DNA of 64,000 bases from Longimicrobiales bacterium. Lineage in GTDB: Bacteria; Gemmatimonadota; Gemmatimonadetes; Longimicrobiales; RSA9. Positions 266-7,911 of this stretch are shown here, piece after piece. Position 1 is the first letter of the stretch. Every line of letters starts with the position of its first letter. The notes beneath the pieces were generated by a model. The model was not told the DNA's origin, searched no databases, and was given only the letters and a program-made list of their open reading frames with translations. The stretch covers positions 75 to 64,074 of the forward strand of contig DATHVP010000148.1 of the NCBI GenBank assembly GCA_035461245.1, in the 5' to 3' direction. The position numbers and the translations under genes are program-made.

Positions 266-1462
266 TCAGAGGGCAGCGAGCAGCGGTGTCCGGCTGATCC
301 GGGCGACGGACTGAGCGCGGTCCAGCCCATCCCCGAGGTCGCGCAGCAGATCGCGCGTCGACTCGATGCCGACGGACAGTCGTAGCAACGAGTCCGTAAT
401 GCCTGCCGTGTCCCGCGCAGCTGCGTCCATGGACGCGTGCGTCATCGTGGCCGGGTGCGCGATCAGGCTTTCTACGCCGCCGAGCGACTCGGCCAGTGTG
501 AAGCAGCGCAGGCCATCGAGCAGGGCGCGAACAGCCGGTTCGCCACCTGCCAGCTCGAACGACATCATGGCGCCGGCACCGAGCTGTTGACGCGCCGCAA
601 CATCGTGCCCCTCGTGCGTGGGCAGTCCGGGGTAGTACACATGCGTAACCGCATCGCTCCGTGTAAGCGCGTCCGCAACTGCCGCGGCGTTCTCGAGGTG
701 CACGGCCATGCGCGCATGCAGGGTGCGCAAGCCGCGCAGTGTCAGGTACGCATCGAACGGCGCACCCGCCAGGCCGAGACAGTTGGCCCACCAGCTCAGC
801 TCGTCGAGAACTGCAGCTTCGCGTGCCACGACGGCTCCACCGACAACATCGCTGTGTCCGTTCAGGTACTTCGTCGTCGAATGAAGCACAATATCTGCGC
901 CGAGGTCGATGGGACGCTGCAGTGCCGGGGAAAGGAACGTGTTGTCGGCGACTACAACTGTACCACAGTCGTGACCTGCCTCCGCAAGTGCGGCGATATC
1001 GGCGATCCGCAGAAGCGGATTGCTCGGCGTCTCGATCCACAGCAGGCGTGGCTGACGGCTTCTCACCTTTGCCGGCCCGTCTGCTGCTGTCATGTCAACA
1101 CACTCCACGTCGAAGTTGCCGCGGCTGGCAAGCGCCCGCAGCAGGCGGTGCGTGCCACCATAGCAGTCGTGCGGCGCGAGGAGCAGGTCGCCCGGTCGCA
1201 GCAACTGCACGACGAGCGTTACAGCAGCCATGCCGGATGCAGTAACAACACCTCCATATGCGCCTTCGAGCTCAGCAATTGCAGCAGCCAGGTGGTCACG
1301 GGTCGGATTTCCGGAGCGGGTGTAGTCGTACTCCCGCTTTCCATCGAAACCGGCGAAGCTGAAGTTCGCCGAGAGATGGATCGGCGGCACCACCGCGCCA
1401 TGGTGCGGATCGCTCTCGATACCAGCGCGCACGGCACATGTCCTTGAGTCGTCGATTTTCAC
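266..1462 (-). CDS. metB: Cystathionine gamma-synthase / Cys-Met metabolism PLP-dependent enzyme (MetB-like)
   Basis: 398-aa ORF that resembles E. coli MetB along its whole length (VVPPIHLS, SGNPTR, SPSNPLLR, PLP-lysine motif HSTTKYLNGHSD, LAESLGGVESL). The GTG start overlaps the metX stop (GTGA). Confidence 0.85.
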   Translation of the reverse strand: MKIDDSRTCAVRAGIESDPHHGAVVPPIHLSANFSFAGFDGKREYDYTRSGNPTRDHLAAAIAELEGAYGGVVTASGMAAVTLVVQLLRPGDLLLAPHDCYGGTHRLLRALASRGNFDVECVDMTAADGPAKVRSRQPRLLWIETPSNPLLRIADIAALAEAGHDCGTVVVADNTFLSPALQRPIDLGADIVLHSTTKYLNGHSDVVGGAVVAREAAVLDELSWWANCLGLAGAPFDAYLTLRGLRTLHARMAVHLENAAAVADALTRSDAVTHVYYPGLPTHEGHDVAARQQLGAGAMMSFELAGGEPAVRALLDGLRCFTLAESLGGVESLIAHPATMTHASMDAAARDTAGITDSLLRLSVGIESTRDLLRDLGDGLDRAQSVARISRTPLLAAL

Positions 1463-2475
1463 ACCACACCTCCGCGCGTAAGTATTCGGGTCAGCGTTGC
1501 AGTCATGGCAGTGGTCTCCTTGAGAAACGCGTCGTGGCCGTACATGGAAGTGATCTCAACCAGTCCGTCAGGTACCGGCAGCTGCCGGTGCAGCGCGCGC
1601 AGCTGCGCCGCTGGCACGAGTGTGTCCGAATCGAAGGCAATCAGCGTTGTCGGCACAGTAACGGACGCTGGATCTACTGCATGCAGGTCGAGCGATTCGG
1701 AGAGGCACAGGAATGCGTCGGGTGGAAACACCTGGGCGAACTGGCTGCCGCAGTGCTCGAGGTAGTCCTCGACCTCGAAACGCGCGGGGAAGGTGCCGGC
1801 AACGGGCCCTGCCCCAAATCGGGTCGCGAATTCATCAGCAGTGCGGTATGTGGTCAGCGCGATGCCCCGCGCAATCGAAACCGCCTCTGTCGCGGCGCCC
1901 GTCTCCAAACCGAGACGCACAATACGGCGCTGCAGTGTACGCAGCGCAGTCGCCATTGGATGGCTTCGCTCGGCTGCTGCGATAGCAATGACGCGTTCGA
2001 CGCGCACGGTATCCATGGCCGCAAGCGCAAGCGCGACCATGCCGCCGTACGACGCGCCTATCACGACTGCGGCGCGATCAATGCCGAGATGATCGAGTGC
2101 GGCGGTGACGGCGCGGGCCTGATCGTGCGTTGTTACCGGTATCCGTCGCCCTCCCGCAAACCTGAATACGGGTGGACCGCTCGATGTACCGGCACCTCCG
2201 AGCCAATCAATTGAGAGCACGCGCGACTGGCGGGTATCGACAGGGAGCCCGGCTCCGACTATCGCATCCCACCAGCCTGGGCGTCGGTCGTGGGCATGTG
2301 CAGCGACATGACGGCGGGCGGATATACCCCCCAGCACGATGATGACCGGTGCGCTGTCTTCGCCTGCGAGCTCGAAACCCACGTTGACGTCGATCACGGT
2401 ACCATGATCGAGCCGGAGCGGTATAGCAGACCGGATCGTCCCGGTCGGTGCAGGGGGATGGGGTACCGTCCTCAT
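1459..2475 (-). CDS. metX: Homoserine O-acyltransferase (MetX-type alpha/beta hydrolase)
   Basis: The ORF track gives 1459..2805. I start at the ATG at 2475 (MRTVPH...), which forms an ATGA overlap with the upstream gene's stop. MetX-like segments are VIIVLGGISA, nucleophile elbow GASYGGMVAL and C-terminal SMYGHDAFL. Confidence 0.85.
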   Translation of the reverse strand: MRTVPHPPAPTGTIRSAIPLRLDHGTVIDVNVGFELAGEDSAPVIIVLGGISARRHVAAHAHDRRPGWWDAIVGAGLPVDTRQSRVLSIDWLGGAGTSSGPPVFRFAGGRRIPVTTHDQARAVTAALDHLGIDRAAVVIGASYGGMVALALAAMDTVRVERVIAIAAAERSHPMATALRTLQRRIVRLGLETGAATEAVSIARGIALTTYRTADEFATRFGAGPVAGTFPARFEVEDYLEHCGSQFAQVFPPDAFLCLSESLDLHAVDPASVTVPTTLIAFDSDTLVPAAQLRALHRQLPVPDGLVEITSMYGHDAFLKETTAMTATLTRILTRGGVV

Positions 2476-3323
2476 GCGGAACGCTCGACTTTGGGCAGGG
2501 CAGCTGGTGCGACTCCCGGCGGTACCGGCGCGCAGGCGACGTGCCGTGCACTGTTGACCTGCCGCGCGGGTGGGCCTGACACCAACGTGGCCGGCGGCTG
2601 ATTCAGCCGAGAGCGGAAATGGTAGACACGCAGCGGCACGCCCCTGCGCGCGGCATGACACGCAGCATCGGCGTGCACGACGCGGCCGCCGCGCTGGGCA
2701 AGGCTGACCAGCGCCGCGTGCGTCATGCGGTCGAACCGCCGAGCGTCCGGTGTGGTTTGCGGATCCGCGTTGTATATGCCATCGACGTCGGTCACGATAT
2801 GACACTCGGCCGCAAGCGCGCCGGCGATTGCGACGGCTGTCAGGTCTGAGGCACCGCGGCCGAGCGTCACCGTCTCGCCATCGGCACGCACGGCCTGAAA
2901 GCCGGCCACCACCGGCACGGTGCCGGCATCAAGCAGCGTCCGCAGTTTCTCGCCACAGACCCTGTGCAGCTCGCCAGCGCGGTGCTCACCCGTCGCTTCG
3001 ATTCCAGCTTCGCCGCCTCTCAGGCTCAGGGCGGGCACATCGACCGAGCCGAGTGCTGCAGCCAGCAGCGCGGCGGCGAGGTCCTCACCCGTCGCCAGAG
3101 CCCGGTCATGCTCGCGGCCGGATGCTCGCTCTCGCGCTGCAGCGGGTGCCGACGTGTCCAGCCATCGCGTGATGCGATCGGTCGTCGAGCCCGGTGCACT
3201 CACCACCACCACAACCGCGCGACCTTCACGGCGGTGCCGCCGCACCCGCAGCGCCGCTCTGCGCAGCCGGTTCGGGGTGCCGAGCGACGTTCCGCCAAAT
3301 TTGAGCACAAGCGTCTGCGACAT
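2472..3323 (-). CDS. Aspartate kinase, catalytic (amino-acid kinase) domain only, no ACT domains
   Basis: 283-aa ORF with N-terminal VLKFGGTSLG and an internal DVDGIYNADP motif of the aspartokinase/amino-acid kinase fold. It ends about where the ACT domains normally begin. A GGGAAGG Shine-Dalgarno lies about 7 nt before the ATG at 3323. Confidence 0.75.
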   Translation of the reverse strand: MSQTLVLKFGGTSLGTPNRLRRAALRVRRHRREGRAVVVVVSAPGSTTDRITRWLDTSAPAAARERASGREHDRALATGEDLAAALLAAALGSVDVPALSLRGGEAGIEATGEHRAGELHRVCGEKLRTLLDAGTVPVVAGFQAVRADGETVTLGRGASDLTAVAIAGALAAECHIVTDVDGIYNADPQTTPDARRFDRMTHAALVSLAQRGGRVVHADAACHAARRGVPLRVYHFRSRLNQPPATLVSGPPARQVNSARHVACAPVPPGVAPAALPKVERSA

Positions 3324-3357
3324 GGCTTGCCTTCCCGATTCAGGGTAACCAAGGGGT

Positions 3358-3395
3358 ATAAAAAAGCCCGGCCCTCTCGCTGGAGAGGGCCGGGC
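3358..3395 (-). terminator. Intrinsic terminator/attenuator hairpin in the met operon leader
   Basis: The minus strand reads GCCCGGCCCUCUC-CAGC-GAGAGGGCCGGGC, a 13-bp perfect stem followed by UUUUUU. It ends about 35 nt upstream of the aspartokinase start codon. Confidence 0.75.
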
Positions 3396-3419
3396 GCTAT
3401 TGAACAGAATGTTCTCAGT

Positions 3420-3512
3420 TCATCTTTCGCGCTGGCACGCGCGAACGCCCGTCCGCCCCTCCCCCCGGAGGATCGTCGTCATTCGCATCATCATTCGCGT
3501 GCCGAACTTCAT
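3420..3512 (-). CDS. Putative attenuator leader peptide, 30 aa (MKFGTRMMMRMTTILRGEGRTGVRACQRER)
   Basis: Small minus-strand ORF found by hand translation. An AAGGA sits 9 nt upstream of the ATG at 3512. Four Met codons fall within 5 positions, followed by Thr-Thr-Ile. The stop lies 24 nt before the terminator stem. Confidence 0.45.
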   Translation of the reverse strand: MKFGTRMMMRMTTILRGEGRTGVRACQRER

Positions 3513-4178
3513 TGCTACAAGTCCTTCGCGGAGTCAAGCCGGTACAAACAGAACGCCCGGACGGAGATGCGCCGCCGGGCATCGCTTTTTAGCATTTGTT
3601 TAACGTGGCTGCAATAGGCGGCAACTCACCACGACGACTCTGTTCGTCCAGAATAGGGCACGGCCACGATGCTGTCAAGCAGGCTGCTCTCGGACTTGCG
3701 TGGCCGTAAGAAGTAAACGGGGCGATACCGTCATCGAGCCGGCCACGGGCTACGCGATCGGCCGTGTGCTGCCGGACCTGCGGCGCGGCCAGACGCAGGT
3801 GGTTGCCATTGGCAGTGCTCTGAACCGCCGGGCCTGCTGGCGGCAGCCGCGCTGGCCCTGGCGCGGGCGCACATCCTTTCCTACGCTGGCGAGGTCTCCA
3901 TCCTGCCCGACGGCCGCCTCGATCCGGCGGCGGTGGCGGTTCGGGTGGCGGCGCGGTCGCGGAAGCAGGCGCATCATGTCCGAACGACCGGACCGTACGC
4001 GTCGGATCACGAGTAGCGGTCCTGACGGGGCGCCGCCGCCGCGACCGGAGCAAGTGGCCGCCGGAGCGTGATATCCATCCGGCCCGCAGGGGCCCCTGCC
4101 CGGTCATGCTGCCGCGGGGCACTTCTCTTGCACGCCGCGGGGATCCGAACCGGTTCCACTCCAGAACGGCCAGCGACA

Positions 4179-5561
4179 ATGAAAGCCATGCACTGTCCGC
4201 GACTCTTCCCCGGGGCCCTGACCCTCCTGACCGCGACGCTCGTGACCGCCTGCGCCACGGCCCGCCCTGAGGGCGCGCCGGTGCCATCGCCCCCGCTCCC
4301 GCAGGGCGATGCCGCCGAACTCACGGCCTGGGTCGAAGCCGTGTGTGATGCGGCGAATACGCGCACCGCGTGCCGGGAGTCGGCCCTGGTACGGGTCGCC
4401 GAGGAACGGGGCATCGCCGCCGCCATGGACGTGGTCGCGCGCCTGGGGCTGACGGACTCTGACGGGCACGCTGCCAGCCACATGATCGGCATCCGCGGGT
4501 ACCGGGGCGTCGAGTCGGCCGCCGAGGACTTCGCGTCATGTACGACGCTGCACCAGTCGGGCTGCTACCACGGCGTCGTGCAGGCGTACTTCGCCGACCT
4601 GCGCCAGGCCCCAGGCCCGGACCGCATGGACGAGGAGACCGTCAGCGCACTGTGCGCGCCGTACCGTGACCTGGAGAACGGGTACTGGTCCCTGTTCCAG
4701 TGCATCCATGGCGTGGGGCACGGGGTGATGCTCGTGCACGACCACCATCTGCCGCGGGCGCTGGAGACGTGCGATCTCCTGCCCACCAGCTGGGAACGCG
4801 AATCCTGTTACGGGGGCGCATTCATGGAGAGCGCCGTCACTGCCCTGACCCCACACCACGACCATTCCGCCGTTGCCCTCGCCGGGCGGGAGCCGGCTCG
4901 CGCCGAGCACGACGATCACGCCCATCACGCCTCTCATGGCGCAGCCGGTGGCGCTGCGGACCCGTTCCCGGCCATCAACCCCGACGACCTGCACTACCCA
5001 TGCAGCGTGCTGGACGCCCGCTACCTGAAGGCCTGCTACGACATGCAGACCGCCACCATGCTCTACCTCCTGAACCAGGATATCGCCGCGACGGCGGCCG
5101 CCTGCCGGGAGGCGCCGGACGCGATCCTGCGCGCCGTGTGTCATCGCAGCCTGGGCCGGGACATCAACGCCATCACGGGCGGCGAGCATACCCGGTCCGT
5201 GGCCCTGTGCGGGCAGGCCGCGCCAGCGGACCGGCCATCCTGCCATACCGGGGTGGTGAAGAACGTCATTGACGTAACGGCAGACGCCGCGTCAGGCGCG
5301 GCCTACTGCGAACGGGTCCCGGCCGGGAGCGAGCGGGAGGCGTGCTACCGGGCCATCGGCGAGCAAACGACGGTGCTGATCCCCCGCCTGGCGGACCGAG
5401 CCCGCTTCTGCCTCTCGTTCGACGGCGCCAACCGGACGGCGTGCATGGCAGGCGCGCGGGCGGACTCCTCCTCGGCGACGCCGGCACCTGGCGATCCTCC
5501 TGTCGCAGTCACCGGCCCAGGGGGGACGCAGACCGCGGCGTCGATCCCGCGAGGGCGATGA
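4179..5561 (+). CDS. Hypothetical Cys-motif-repeat, His-rich lipoprotein
   Basis: In-frame ATG at 4179 gives MKAMHCPRLFPGALTLLTATLVTAC, a signal peptide plus lipobox. It carries seven repeats of C-[YH]-x-G-like motifs and a His-rich block (HHDH...EHDDHAHHASH). No family was recognised. Confidence 0.6.
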   Translation: MKAMHCPRLFPGALTLLTATLVTACATARPEGAPVPSPPLPQGDAAELTAWVEAVCDAANTRTACRESALVRVAEERGIAAAMDVVARLGLTDSDGHAASHMIGIRGYRGVESAAEDFASCTTLHQSGCYHGVVQAYFADLRQAPGPDRMDEETVSALCAPYRDLENGYWSLFQCIHGVGHGVMLVHDHHLPRALETCDLLPTSWERESCYGGAFMESAVTALTPHHDHSAVALAGREPARAEHDDHAHHASHGAAGGAADPFPAINPDDLHYPCSVLDARYLKACYDMQTATMLYLLNQDIAATAAACREAPDAILRAVCHRSLGRDINAITGGEHTRSVALCGQAAPADRPSCHTGVVKNVIDVTADAASGAAYCERVPAGSEREACYRAIGEQTTVLIPRLADRARFCLSFDGANRTACMAGARADSSSATPAPGDPPVAVTGPGGTQTAASIPRGR

Positions 5562-6624: not shown

Positions 6625-7911
6625 TCAGCCCATCGACCGCAGGCCGAGCGCCTCCAGCATCTCCGCACGCGCGCCCGCGTCGCATTCCAGCGTCACCGCG
6701 TCACGGACGGCCTCGATAGCGTCAGCCGTGCCGATCTGCTCAAGCGCCCACGCTGCGTGGGACCGCACCACCGGCTCCAGGTCACGCAACGCGGCAGCCA
6801 GCACTGGCACCGCCTCCCCCGCCCCCCAGTTCCCCAGCGCCACCGCCACGTTCCGCTTCAGCCCCGCGTACCCAGCACGCCGTATCGCCGACCCCCGAGT
6901 CCACTCATCCCACTCCTCATACGTCATCCGCATGAGCGAGATCAGCGATGGCAGCGTGGTGCCCGGAAGTTCGCCCGCTGTCCCCGCCCGTTCCCGTTTA
7001 CGTAAACGTTCCCGTTCCCGTTCCCGGCCGTCGAAGTCCGGCTCGCGCGTCAACGCCACGAACTTCGACGAGTTCCACGGACACACCTCCTGGCAGATAT
7101 CGCAACCGAACACCCGGTTCGTCATCAGACTCCGCAGTTCCCGCGGGATGGGGCCCCGATGCTCGATGGTCAGGTAGGAGATGCACCGCGTCGCGTCCAT
7201 CACCGGTGCACCATTCGCGTCGCGCCCCAGCAACGCGCCCGTCGGGCAGGCAGACACGCAGGCGGAACACGTGCCGCAGTGGTCGGCGCCGAATGGCGTG
7301 TCCGGCGCCAGCTCGATGTCCAGGAGCAGCGAGCCCAGAAAGAAGTATGATCCCTTCCGCGGATGTATGAGCATGGTGTTGTGCCCGAACCAGCCCAGCC
7401 CCGCCCGCTGTGCGAGTTCCCGCTCCAGCACCGGCCCCGTGTCCACATACGCCCGGGCCATGGGTAACTCGCGGCCAAGTTCACCTTCCAGCCACGTCAG
7501 CAGTGCCAGCAGCTTCTTCTTCAGCACCTTGTGGTAATCCCGGCCGCGCGCATATCGCGCAATGACACCGCGGGACCCGTCGGCAGCAGCGTCGCTCGGA
7601 TTCACTGGACCGGCGGACGCGGGGTCATCAGCAGGGCGATCGTCGCCGGGATAGTAGTTCAACGCCACGACAACCGCCGACCGGAATCCCTCAGGGGCGA
7701 GTCGACGCGCCACTGCGTCTTCCCGCGCCAGGTACGCCATGGTCCCGTGGCGGCCCGCGGCGATCCATGACCGGTAGAAGGCCGAATGGTCGCTGGGACG
7801 CACATCCGTCACGCCCACCAGCTCGAACCCCAGGCGTCGCGCCTGCGCCTTGAGTTCCGTCGTCAGGAGCTGCGCGTCATCCGGTACCGTCTGGACATCA
7901 GTCTTCGACAT
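6625..7911 (-). CDS. queG: tRNA epoxyqueuosine(34) reductase
   Basis: 428 aa with two 4Fe-4S ferredoxin motifs (CGTCSACVSACPTGAL and CDICQEVCPWN) and a C-terminal HEAT-like repeat (PVVRSHAAWAL), which is the QueG architecture. Confidence 0.9.
   Translation of the reverse strand: MSKTDVQTVPDDAQLLTTELKAQARRLGFELVGVTDVRPSDHSAFYRSWIAAGRHGTMAYLAREDAVARRLAPEGFRSAVVVALNYYPGDDRPADDPASAGPVNPSDAAADGSRGVIARYARGRDYHKVLKKKLLALLTWLEGELGRELPMARAYVDTGPVLERELAQRAGLGWFGHNTMLIHPRKGSYFFLGSLLLDIELAPDTPFGADHCGTCSACVSACPTGALLGRDANGAPVMDATRCISYLTIEHRGPIPRELRSLMTNRVFGCDICQEVCPWNSSKFVALTREPDFDGRERERERLRKRERAGTAGELPGTTLPSLISLMRMTYEEWDEWTRGSAIRRAGYAGLKRNVAVALGNWGAGEAVPVLAAALRDLEPVVRSHAAWALEQIGTADAIEAVRDAVTLECDAGARAEMLEALGLRSMG

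Follow-up and report, generated by a model that had tools for sequence, protein, structure and literature searches.

A predicted methionine-codon leader-peptide attenuator in series with a candidate SAM-II riboswitch ahead of a methionine operon in Gemmatimonadota

Introduction

How might a methionine operon be controlled when the aspartate kinase (AK) encoded by its first gene has no allosteric ACT domains? The question is raised by a 64,000-nucleotide (nt) stretch of DNA from a Longimicrobiales bacterium of the phylum Gemmatimonadota (assembly GCA_035461245.1, contig DATHVP010000148.1, positions 75 to 64,074), referred to below in its entirety as the window, in which homologues of AK, MetX and MetB form an operon on the minus strand (266..3323). 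Leader-peptide attenuation is textbook knowledge for the Trp, His, Phe, Leu, Thr and Ile/Val operons, and the control of methionine genes is attributed to S-adenosylmethionine (SAM) riboswitches, T-boxes and MetJ/MetR-type proteins. A first-pass annotation, made by a model from the letters of the window, had proposed a ribosome-mediated attenuator built on methionine codons ahead of this operon, following the 1:2 / 2:3 / 3:4 pairing logic of the classical attenuators. Here we describe this leader together with its relatives in Gemmatimonadota. Our analysis suggests, as a prediction from sequence and folding that we hold with fair confidence, that a SAM-II riboswitch is followed in series by a leader-peptide attenuator dependent on the charging of Met-tRNA.

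Results

On the minus strand, which carries every element of the leader, a promoter, a SAM-II match, a hairpin (T1), the motif AAGGA, a 30-codon open reading frame (ORF), two small hairpins and a terminator (T2) follow one another in this order before the operon begins at 3323. The leader ORF comprises 30 codons and a stop (MKFGTRMMMRMTTILRGEGRTGVRACQRER; 3420..3512, with the ATG at 3512-3510 and the TGA at 3422-3420), and the Shine-Dalgarno-like AAGGA lies 9 nt before its ATG (3522..3526; duplex with the anti-Shine-Dalgarno sequence, -5.5 kcal/mol). Methionine codons occupy positions 7, 8, 9 and 11 (AUG AUG AUG CGA AUG; 3480..3494, that is, 3494-3486 and 3482-3480), with no cysteine codon in the cluster, and Thr-Thr-Ile codons (ACG ACG AUC, 3479-3471) stand right after Met11. 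Because methionine makes up about 1.7% of the residues in the long ORFs of the window (cysteine, 1.2%), four methionines within five codons are very unlikely to have arisen by chance. The ORF, the AAGGA, the methionine codons, the Thr-Thr-Ile run and a hairpin CCUCC-GGGG-GGAGG (3471-3458) had all been located correctly, on the minus strand, by the first-pass annotation.

Downstream of the codon cluster, the RNA can adopt alternative pairings. Region 1 forms the 5' side of the 1:2 hairpin (GCGAAUGACGACGAUCCUCC; 3467..3486) and contains the codons Met11, Thr, Thr, Ile and Leu, and region 2 (GGGGAGGGGCGGACGGGCGUUCGCG; 3440..3464) can pair either with region 1 or with region 3. The energy of the extended 1:2 hairpin (3486-3440) is -24.3 kcal/mol (z = -3.1). 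Inside the ORF, hairpin B (UUCGCGC-GUGCCA-GCGCGAA; 3426..3445), which has a counterpart at the same position in relatives, is followed by the stop codon UGA and hairpin C (3401..3422; UGA at 3422-3420), and the ORF ends 24 nt before the 5' arm of T2. The terminator itself (3360..3395) consists of a 13-bp stem with 11 G-C pairs and a 4-nt loop (3395-3366) followed by U6 (T6 in the DNA, 3365-3360), and it folds at -31.6 kcal/mol (z = -6.25); the stem and the U6 had been described before, with an end at 3358 that we place 2 nt earlier, at 3360. Region 3 (GCGCCCGGCCCUCUCC; 3382..3397) corresponds to the 5' arm of T2 plus 2 nt and is the antiterminator partner of region 2. A pairing of 8 out of 9 positions between these two regions, as initially proposed, does exist, and the best antiterminator is a better, bipartite helix of 16 bp (GGGGAGGG/CCCUCUCC, one C-G pair, and CGGGCGU/GCGCCCG) that uses the whole 5' arm of T2 and encloses hairpins B and C. 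The alternative pairings first drawn are thus real, with a region 1 and an antiterminator that are longer than depicted. For the antiterminator conformer (3464-3379), the folding energy is -43.4 kcal/mol (z = -4.1). Most of region 1 would be hidden under a ribosome that holds the Met11 codon in its A site, and with a ribosome modelled in this way the pairing of the terminator arm gained -18.3 kcal/mol in the window versus -11.5 +/- 3.3 kcal/mol in shuffled sequences.

We compared 26 distinct homologous leaders from Gemmatimonadota, with a 27th in the cultured Gaopeijia maritima. Leaders L001-L008, L031, L033 and L036-L041 were reached through the AK protein, a route unbiased by leader sequence, and scanning metagenome contigs for a DNA pattern yielded L013-L030. 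L018 (poly-G junk) and L035 (an AK paralogue in a non-ribosomal peptide synthetase cluster) were left out, as was L016, in which the RNA elements are present with no ATG in the leader frame. About fifteen protein-led loci share the same design as the pattern-found leaders. Relatives of the window AK were found only in Gemmatimonadota, at 51-67% identity, and nearly all leaders lie 5' of metY-AK-metX-hom or AK-metX-metB(-asd) operons; the short ORF, followed by the same hairpin and terminator, is present in every AK locus that reaches far enough upstream. The complete genome of G. maritima (CP144380.1) carries the full arrangement, at about 3,459,200-3,459,600. In L038, the closest locus by AK (67% identity), SAM-II, T1, MSAARQAMMRMRMTPIPPEERSGVRVCLRDA, the terminator and AK follow in that order, and the leader ORF is annotated as a 31-residue gene in the source record. 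Leader peptides elsewhere include MRPELRGSVFVMRMMMCMPALPAGEADGRDCAGRADV (L025), MITYATLTRFFMHMHMCMWSALPAGEAGGGARARFASA (L001) and MDIRPAFTMCMCCMCCMCQCVAPPGETDGRARASTRHGSAR (L004).

A cluster of Met or Met/Cys codons was found in the short ORF of all 26 leaders. The cluster peptides vary (MMRMRM, MRMMMCM, MHMHMCM, MCMCCMC and others), their nucleotide sequences differ widely by lineage, their spacer codons vary, and both synonyms TGC and TGT are used. Despite this diversity, all 82 cluster ATGs lie in one frame (82/82) and all 56 spacings between them are multiples of 3 (56/56). The leaders contain 87 Met and 92 Cys in 892 residues, as opposed to 0.46% Met and 0.25% Cys in the downstream proteins, and the cluster sits in, or just 5' of, the first strand of the 1:2 hairpin. 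Past the cluster, the leader ORFs run through the conserved RNA in any of the three frames, giving ..PPGETDG.., ..SPRERRTG.. or ..SPGRVGR.. depending on the leader; the peptide tail is therefore not under selection. The conserved objects are the RNA and the codon cluster, which is the signature of a regulatory leader ORF rather than of a small protein or a purely non-coding motif. The test by conservation that the first-pass annotation had named for its own proposal thus came out in favor of that proposal, with the small ORF and its methionine run retained in relatives while the nucleotides of the cluster changed.

The composition of the clusters also appears to follow the pathway downstream. 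Leaders of operons with MetB (transsulfuration, which consumes cysteine) contain almost only Met codons, whereas both Met and Cys codons occur ahead of metY operons (direct sulfhydrylation); with few cases available, this tracking is suggestive. Threonine and isoleucine, which had been proposed as co-sensed members of the aspartate family on account of the Thr-Thr-Ile run, did not hold up as signals, since Cys, rather than either of these, is what accompanies Met in relatives. In AK-first operons (the window, L038, L036 and L040), the last Met is repeatedly followed by a Thr codon (RMT), and the ACG ACG AUC run is explicable without codon sensing because it lies inside the strand that pairs with region 2. 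As a separate observation, the downstream proteins used for the residue counts were the first proteins 3' of leaders L001-L030, mostly MetY (6112 residues), and their low Met and Cys content looks like sulfur sparing; when AK, MetX and MetB of the window were checked for sulfur sparing, none was found apart from the single internal Met of AK.

Switch geometry was evaluated by constrained folding of each sequence, with shuffled sequences as controls; a modelled ribosome occupied the last regulatory codon, and the transcript was truncated at the terminator loop. The truncation was needed because full-length equilibrium folding cannot separate the states. With the ribosome modelled, the 5' arm of T2 paired with region 2 in every leader of a first set (19/19) and in 24 of the 26 of the full set. 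The antiterminator was stabilized by -15 to -26 kcal/mol in most leaders versus -7 to -12 kcal/mol for dinucleotide shuffles (median z, -2.6). In full-length minimum-energy folds, the bases of region 2 are held by region 1, and in 25/26 leaders the bases that pair with region 2 fall in the interval from the codon cluster to 15 nt beyond it, within the footprint of a stalled ribosome. Across the family, 20-45 nt separate the stop codon from the terminator arm. The terminator is conserved in the alignment of the leaders (alignment A1), with a few two-sided changes. A telling case is L041, where region 3 has U in place of C and both of its alternative partners, regions 2 and 4, have A in place of G. 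Such compensation is rare, since regions 2, 3 and 4 limit one another's changes, and column-wise covariation for the 2:3 helix was abandoned as a measure owing to the shifting register and the near invariance of regions 2-4. What the computation shows is the elements and how they are arranged, their retention across the family, the codon periodicity of the cluster and the mutually exclusive pairings. At the sequence level, all features of a classical 1:2 / 2:3 / 3:4 attenuator are present and conserved, which supports the interpretation of the leader as a putative ribosome-mediated attenuator.

Directly upstream of the leader ORF lies an element that the first-pass annotation had overlooked: its view of met-gene control gained support as regards the attenuator and missed a candidate SAM-II riboswitch with a terminator hairpin of its own (3642-3544). 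The attenuator would accordingly come second of two serial switches and would not stand in for a SAM riboswitch. The aptamer was recognized by covariance-model match to Rfam SAM_alpha (RF00521) at 3569..3642, with 34.9 bits and E = 2.9e-6 in an E-value scan of 3250-3750 (gathering score, 36); at the gathering score, Rfam gave no match over the whole 64-kb window. Elements at the same position in L001, L003, L013, L020, L025, L030 and L038 score 37.2-49.7 bits, above the gathering score of RF00521. An alignment of the aptamers (alignment A2) contains 46 invariant columns, including CGUGG..CCACG, UUGC and GCUAAA, and P1 is altered on both sides in L020. The P1 helix and the conserved loop and 3'-tail nucleotides are present in the window, with a single U-to-G substitution in the loop. 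Next comes T1 (GCCCGGCGG / CCGUCCGGGC) with a U-rich run after it (3544..3583; -19.8 kcal/mol, z = -2.55), and in 11/11 loci the aptamer has a GC-rich hairpin plus U-run behind it, at -19 to -33 kcal/mol. The latter count relies on per-sequence folds; a column-based count was dropped because MAFFT had misplaced the 3' arm in two rows. T1 is likely the terminator-type expression platform of the riboswitch, for which SAM binding and switching are predicted, and SAM-II riboswitches with terminator platforms are well documented (PMC9373788; PMC9481103). A SAM-II aptamer is absent from at least 11 Longimicrobium-type loci and from L041, all of which possess the ORF, hairpins and terminator; therefore, the two devices are separable modules.

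A small hairpin was also noticed within T1 (3584-3566), reading GAUGC..GCAUC in the window and GACCG..CGGUC or GAUCG..CGAUC in relatives; it shows two-sided changes, competes with the T1 stem, and may be the antiterminator of the riboswitch platform. In L026 and L027, a SAM-II/SAM-V-like variant aptamer (GCGGCGAUUU..UUGCAUCCGCG..CUGCUAAAC) lies approximately 60-170 nt 5' of the leader ORF with a strong terminator after it; this variant scores under the Rfam gathering score and was recognized by eye only.

Upstream of the aptamer, a sigma-70-like promoter (TTGACA, 17-nt spacer, TATTCT) lies at 3650..3678, the sole promoter-like site in 3000-4400, where 0.2 were expected. A transcript from this promoter would start just 5' of the riboswitch. 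In relatives, TTGAC -35-like boxes read by eye occur at a similar distance 5' of the aptamer, and the -10 elements are more variable.

Searches for known leader classes gave no counterpart. The Rfam leader families (His_leader, Thr_leader, Trp_leader, Leu_leader and others) yielded no match in 3250-3750 at E up to 10, and none at the gathering score over the 64 kb or in the 27 related loci. A T-box was judged unsupported, as the T-box model matched neither the window nor the 27 related loci. Full-text literature searches found no published description of a Met-codon leader attenuator, and no Rfam family matches the leader; the remark in the first-pass annotation that such a device is not a described class agrees with these results.

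Discussion

The arrangement in the window points to two termination switches in series. We infer that the leader ORF is translated, that ribosomes stall at its AUG codons, that T1 and T2 terminate transcription, and that the aptamer binds SAM. When SAM is bound, transcription would probably stop at T1. Transcripts passing T1 would carry the leader ORF, and a ribosome would read Met codons 7, 8, 9 and 11. With plentiful charged Met-tRNA, the ribosome would pass region 2 and hairpin B to the stop codon, leaving region 2 occupied or re-captured by region 1, so that T2 would form and the polymerase would stop before AK. With scarce charged Met-tRNA, the ribosome would stall on the AUG cluster and cover region 1; region 2 would then be free to pair with the emerging 5' arm of T2 (3397-3382), T2 would be blocked, and the operon would be transcribed. 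Because the two termination switches would act in series, low SAM and poor Met-tRNA charging would both be needed for expression.

Several observations weigh against this interpretation. Eighteen of the loci were ascertained by a pattern that itself required conserved regions 2 and 4, the helices are near-invariant, so that column-wise covariation is sparse, and the pairing register shifts by 2 nt between lineages (GGAGGGG in the window versus GGAGAGA). The z-score of the antiterminator taken from the window alone is modest (-2.06), with 4/100 shuffles as good. In equilibrium folding, the full-length RNA always favors the terminator, even with a modelled ribosome, and in the window and six more leaders the truncated RNA favors the antiterminator even when free of ribosomes; the discrimination between states must therefore be kinetic or dependent on ribosome occupancy. 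Methionine limitation would also affect the charging of initiator tRNA, which could lead to failed initiation and hence termination. Shine-Dalgarno sequences are weak in many relatives, and L036 and L040 represent a degenerate form, in which only 2-3 Met codons are present and a Cys-rich ORF competes from a different frame. Metatranscriptome contigs at L021 cover the leader and metY, indicating that the leader region is transcribed, at a resolution that does not extend to 3' ends or termination. As for the riboswitch, the score of the window aptamer is 1 bit under the Rfam gathering score, and T1 of the window has a poor U tract. The competing ORF is a curiosity of its own: in both Gemmatimonadales loci (L036, 4817-4867; L040, 521-571) the overlapping second short ORF (MEYRCARPCCTPVRCE / MERQCAQPCCTQWRCE) retains four Cys codons despite flanking changes and ends just 5' of region 1.

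Four other explanations deserve consideration. SAM-II could be the sole sensor; the stretch from there to the AK gene would then be an extended expression platform, or T2 would mark the end of a small RNA derived from the riboswitch, and the ORF would be incidental. In favor of this, the aptamer does sit upstream, Sinorhizobium SAM-II leaders yield terminated small RNAs (PMC9373788), and open frames are easily kept in 68% GC sequence. The riboswitch, however, has its own terminator hairpin, the downstream elements stand by themselves in the Longimicrobium-type loci and in L041, and a single frame shared by all cluster ATGs is unexpected for a non-coding platform; we consider this explanation very unlikely. 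Scarcely better odds can be given to a structured RNA that binds a ligand or a protein, in which the AUG/UGC-rich tract would be an RNA motif, such as a helix strand, rather than a series of codons that are read. AUG/CAU and UGC/GCA are reverse complements, the cluster is palindromic in L001 and L003 and pairs with a downstream GCGCGUGCAU tract in Longimicrobium, and the rest of the leader is conserved as RNA and not as peptide. Nevertheless, the window cluster is not palindromic, no Rfam family matches, and the nucleotides of the clusters differ greatly (AUGAUGAUGCGAAUG, AUGCACAUGCACAUGUGCAUG, AUGUGUCCGUGUCCGUGC), while all share the Met/Cys content, a single frame and a location just 5' of region 1.

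The ORF might also be translated and regulatory with a different signal or output: a nascent Met/Cys-rich peptide could arrest the ribosome when Met or SAM is sensed, or control could operate via Rho-dependent polarity or mRNA stability instead of the intrinsic terminator. SAM-dependent nascent-peptide arrest is reported for plant CGS1 (PMC3083191), mycobacterial cysteine leader ORFs act on translation and not via terminators (10.1101/834739), and the weak Shine-Dalgarno sequences of many relatives would fit such a mode. Against this stand the peptide, in which only the Met/Cys cluster is conserved and the tail is read in three frames, and the strong conserved intrinsic terminator with a matching antiterminator in nearly every member; this option seems unlikely to us, if less so than the preceding two. 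That the ORF encodes a functional Cys/Met-rich micropeptide, such as a metal-binding peptide or a modified-peptide precursor, co-transcribed with the met genes by chance, is hardly credible: clusters such as CMCMCMCCCC in L026 do resemble metal-binding motifs, but the window cluster has no Cys, the length and termini of the peptide are not conserved, no modification enzymes lie nearby, and the element invariably has a promoter or riboswitch on its 5' side and, on its 3' side, a terminator and then a sulfur-related operon.

The series arrangement of SAM-II and a Met-codon attenuator, which we prefer, resembles several known systems in part. With the enterobacterial attenuators (trpL, hisL, thrL, leuL, pheL and ilvL) it shares a short ORF with clustered codons for the pathway product located in or next to region 1, the exclusive 1:2, 2:3 and 3:4 pairings, and a terminator just before the first gene. 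It differs in that the window leader would sense AUG, and its relatives also UGC/UGU, in that the Gemmatimonadota ORF continues through region 2 and an extra hairpin while a long-range antiterminator encloses two hairpins, and in its host phylum, with no sequence or Rfam relationship to known leaders. SAM-II elements with a terminator, such as that of Sinorhizobium meliloti metZ (PMC9373788), likewise have the core, P1, a terminator hairpin and methionine genes downstream; unlike these, the window copy occurs outside Proteobacteria and is followed by a second, putatively ribosome-dependent attenuator instead of a gene. Actinobacterial cysteine-codon ORFs (PMC1262725; bioRxiv 10.1101/834739) are similar in their upstream runs of sulfur-amino-acid codons, ribosome stalling and association with sulfur-metabolism genes, whereas they have no terminator/antiterminator hairpins; the tested mycobacterial case is leaderless and acts on translation by hiding the downstream Shine-Dalgarno sequence. 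Compared with the mycobacterial polycysteine ORFs, the window has a strong intrinsic terminator between ORF and gene, and Met codons dominate.

Tandem riboswitches, including SAM-I with adenosylcobalamin (AdoCbl) 5' of metE and SAM-II/SAM-V (PMC9481103), provide a precedent for two serial OFF switches with their own terminators and NOR-type logic; the difference is that the second sensor here would be a translating ribosome reading tRNA charging and not an aptamer. The review of tandem riboswitches does not mention attenuation (PMC9481103), and the literature searched contained no case of an aptamer placed in series with a leader that a ribosome reads. In the Met T-boxes of Firmicutes (Staphylococcus aureus metICFE, PMC3771891), the charging of tRNA-Met sets the choice between terminator and antiterminator 5' of met genes, as would occur here; unlike the window leader, a T-box binds uncharged tRNA directly and needs no translation.

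Copies of the leader are not confined to biosynthetic operons. In L026, two copies (291-471 and 1083-1226) flank an OsmC-like gene, one preceding this gene and the other a TonB-dependent receptor and SusD-like pair, and in L022 a copy (2105-2265, minus strand) lies 5' of a luciferase-like monooxygenase. The occurrence of this leader type before non-biosynthetic genes hints at a wider sulfur-related regulon. In its broadest form, our interpretation is that this is the first Met-sensing (in relatives, Met- and Cys-sensing) leader-peptide transcription attenuator, that it defines a sulfur-amino-acid regulon of Gemmatimonadota, and that one branch places it in series behind SAM-II as a two-input gate; we lean toward this joint reading with some reserve. 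That regulon would cover metY-AK-metX-hom, AK-metX-metB, the luciferase-like monooxygenase, the OsmC-like gene and the TonB-receptor/SusD pair.

If true, a conserved Met/Cys-codon attenuator would fill the methionine gap among leader-peptide systems, and one may ask how a switch of this kind works when AUG doubles as the start codon and initiation needs the same amino acid. A serial combination of SAM-II and attenuator would let the cell tell a shortage of methyl donor from a shortage of amino acid for translation. It would help to explain how an AK without allosteric ACT domains could be controlled, and the leader, as a marker of regulation, could aid the annotation of sulfur metabolism in Gemmatimonadota, a phylum that is common in soil but has received little study. 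Because G. maritima is cultured, has a complete genome and carries the full arrangement, the model is open to direct testing.

Operon and neighboring features

The first operon gene (2472-3323, minus strand) encodes an AK of 283 amino acids (aa) that consists of the catalytic domain with no ACT domains; NCBIfam aspartate-kinase models align over only the first ~250 of their ~407 positions. This short form is common in Gemmatimonadota, with 759 matches at E < 1e-30, and is found in met operons, which suggests a Met-dedicated isozyme under transcript-level control. The gene for MetX, a homoserine O-acyltransferase, ends at 1459 on the minus strand, and its start is uncertain, at about 2470-2570. 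The longest MetX ORF (1459-2805, minus strand) overlaps the AK gene by 334 nt in another frame; the true start is probably near 2470-2570, since relatives show 4-nt stop/start overlaps. The third gene (266-1462, minus strand) encodes MetB, an O-succinylhomoserine (thiol)-lyase / cystathionine gamma-synthase.

Among the sequence data examined, the window was present only in soil DNA metagenomes, and the soil metagenome contigs over its leader held no informative variants. Two long ORFs near the leader, 3589-4287 (minus strand) and 4068-5561 (plus strand), have no Pfam or NCBIfam match; the former, of 232 aa, is probably not a gene, because it spans the promoter and the riboswitch. A QueG (epoxyqueuosine reductase) gene lies at 6625-7911 on the minus strand.

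Short tandem or inverted repeat arrays were seen just 5' of the leader promoters in L036 (4460-4660, TTCACCG / CTTACTT units), L041 (560-730, GGTTCC / GGTTAC hexamers) and L019 (3080-3190, a long inverted repeat of TAGTGCTTGG-like units). In L041, a promoter-like TTGACA-17-GCATTC (750-782) ends approximately 5 nt before the leader ATG, and the leader ORF may thus be on a leaderless mRNA. In L033, a c-di-GMP-I riboswitch (650-746; 64.8 bits), located approximately 2.7 kb 5' of the leader and unrelated to it, lies directly 5' of a Peptidase_M23 gene.

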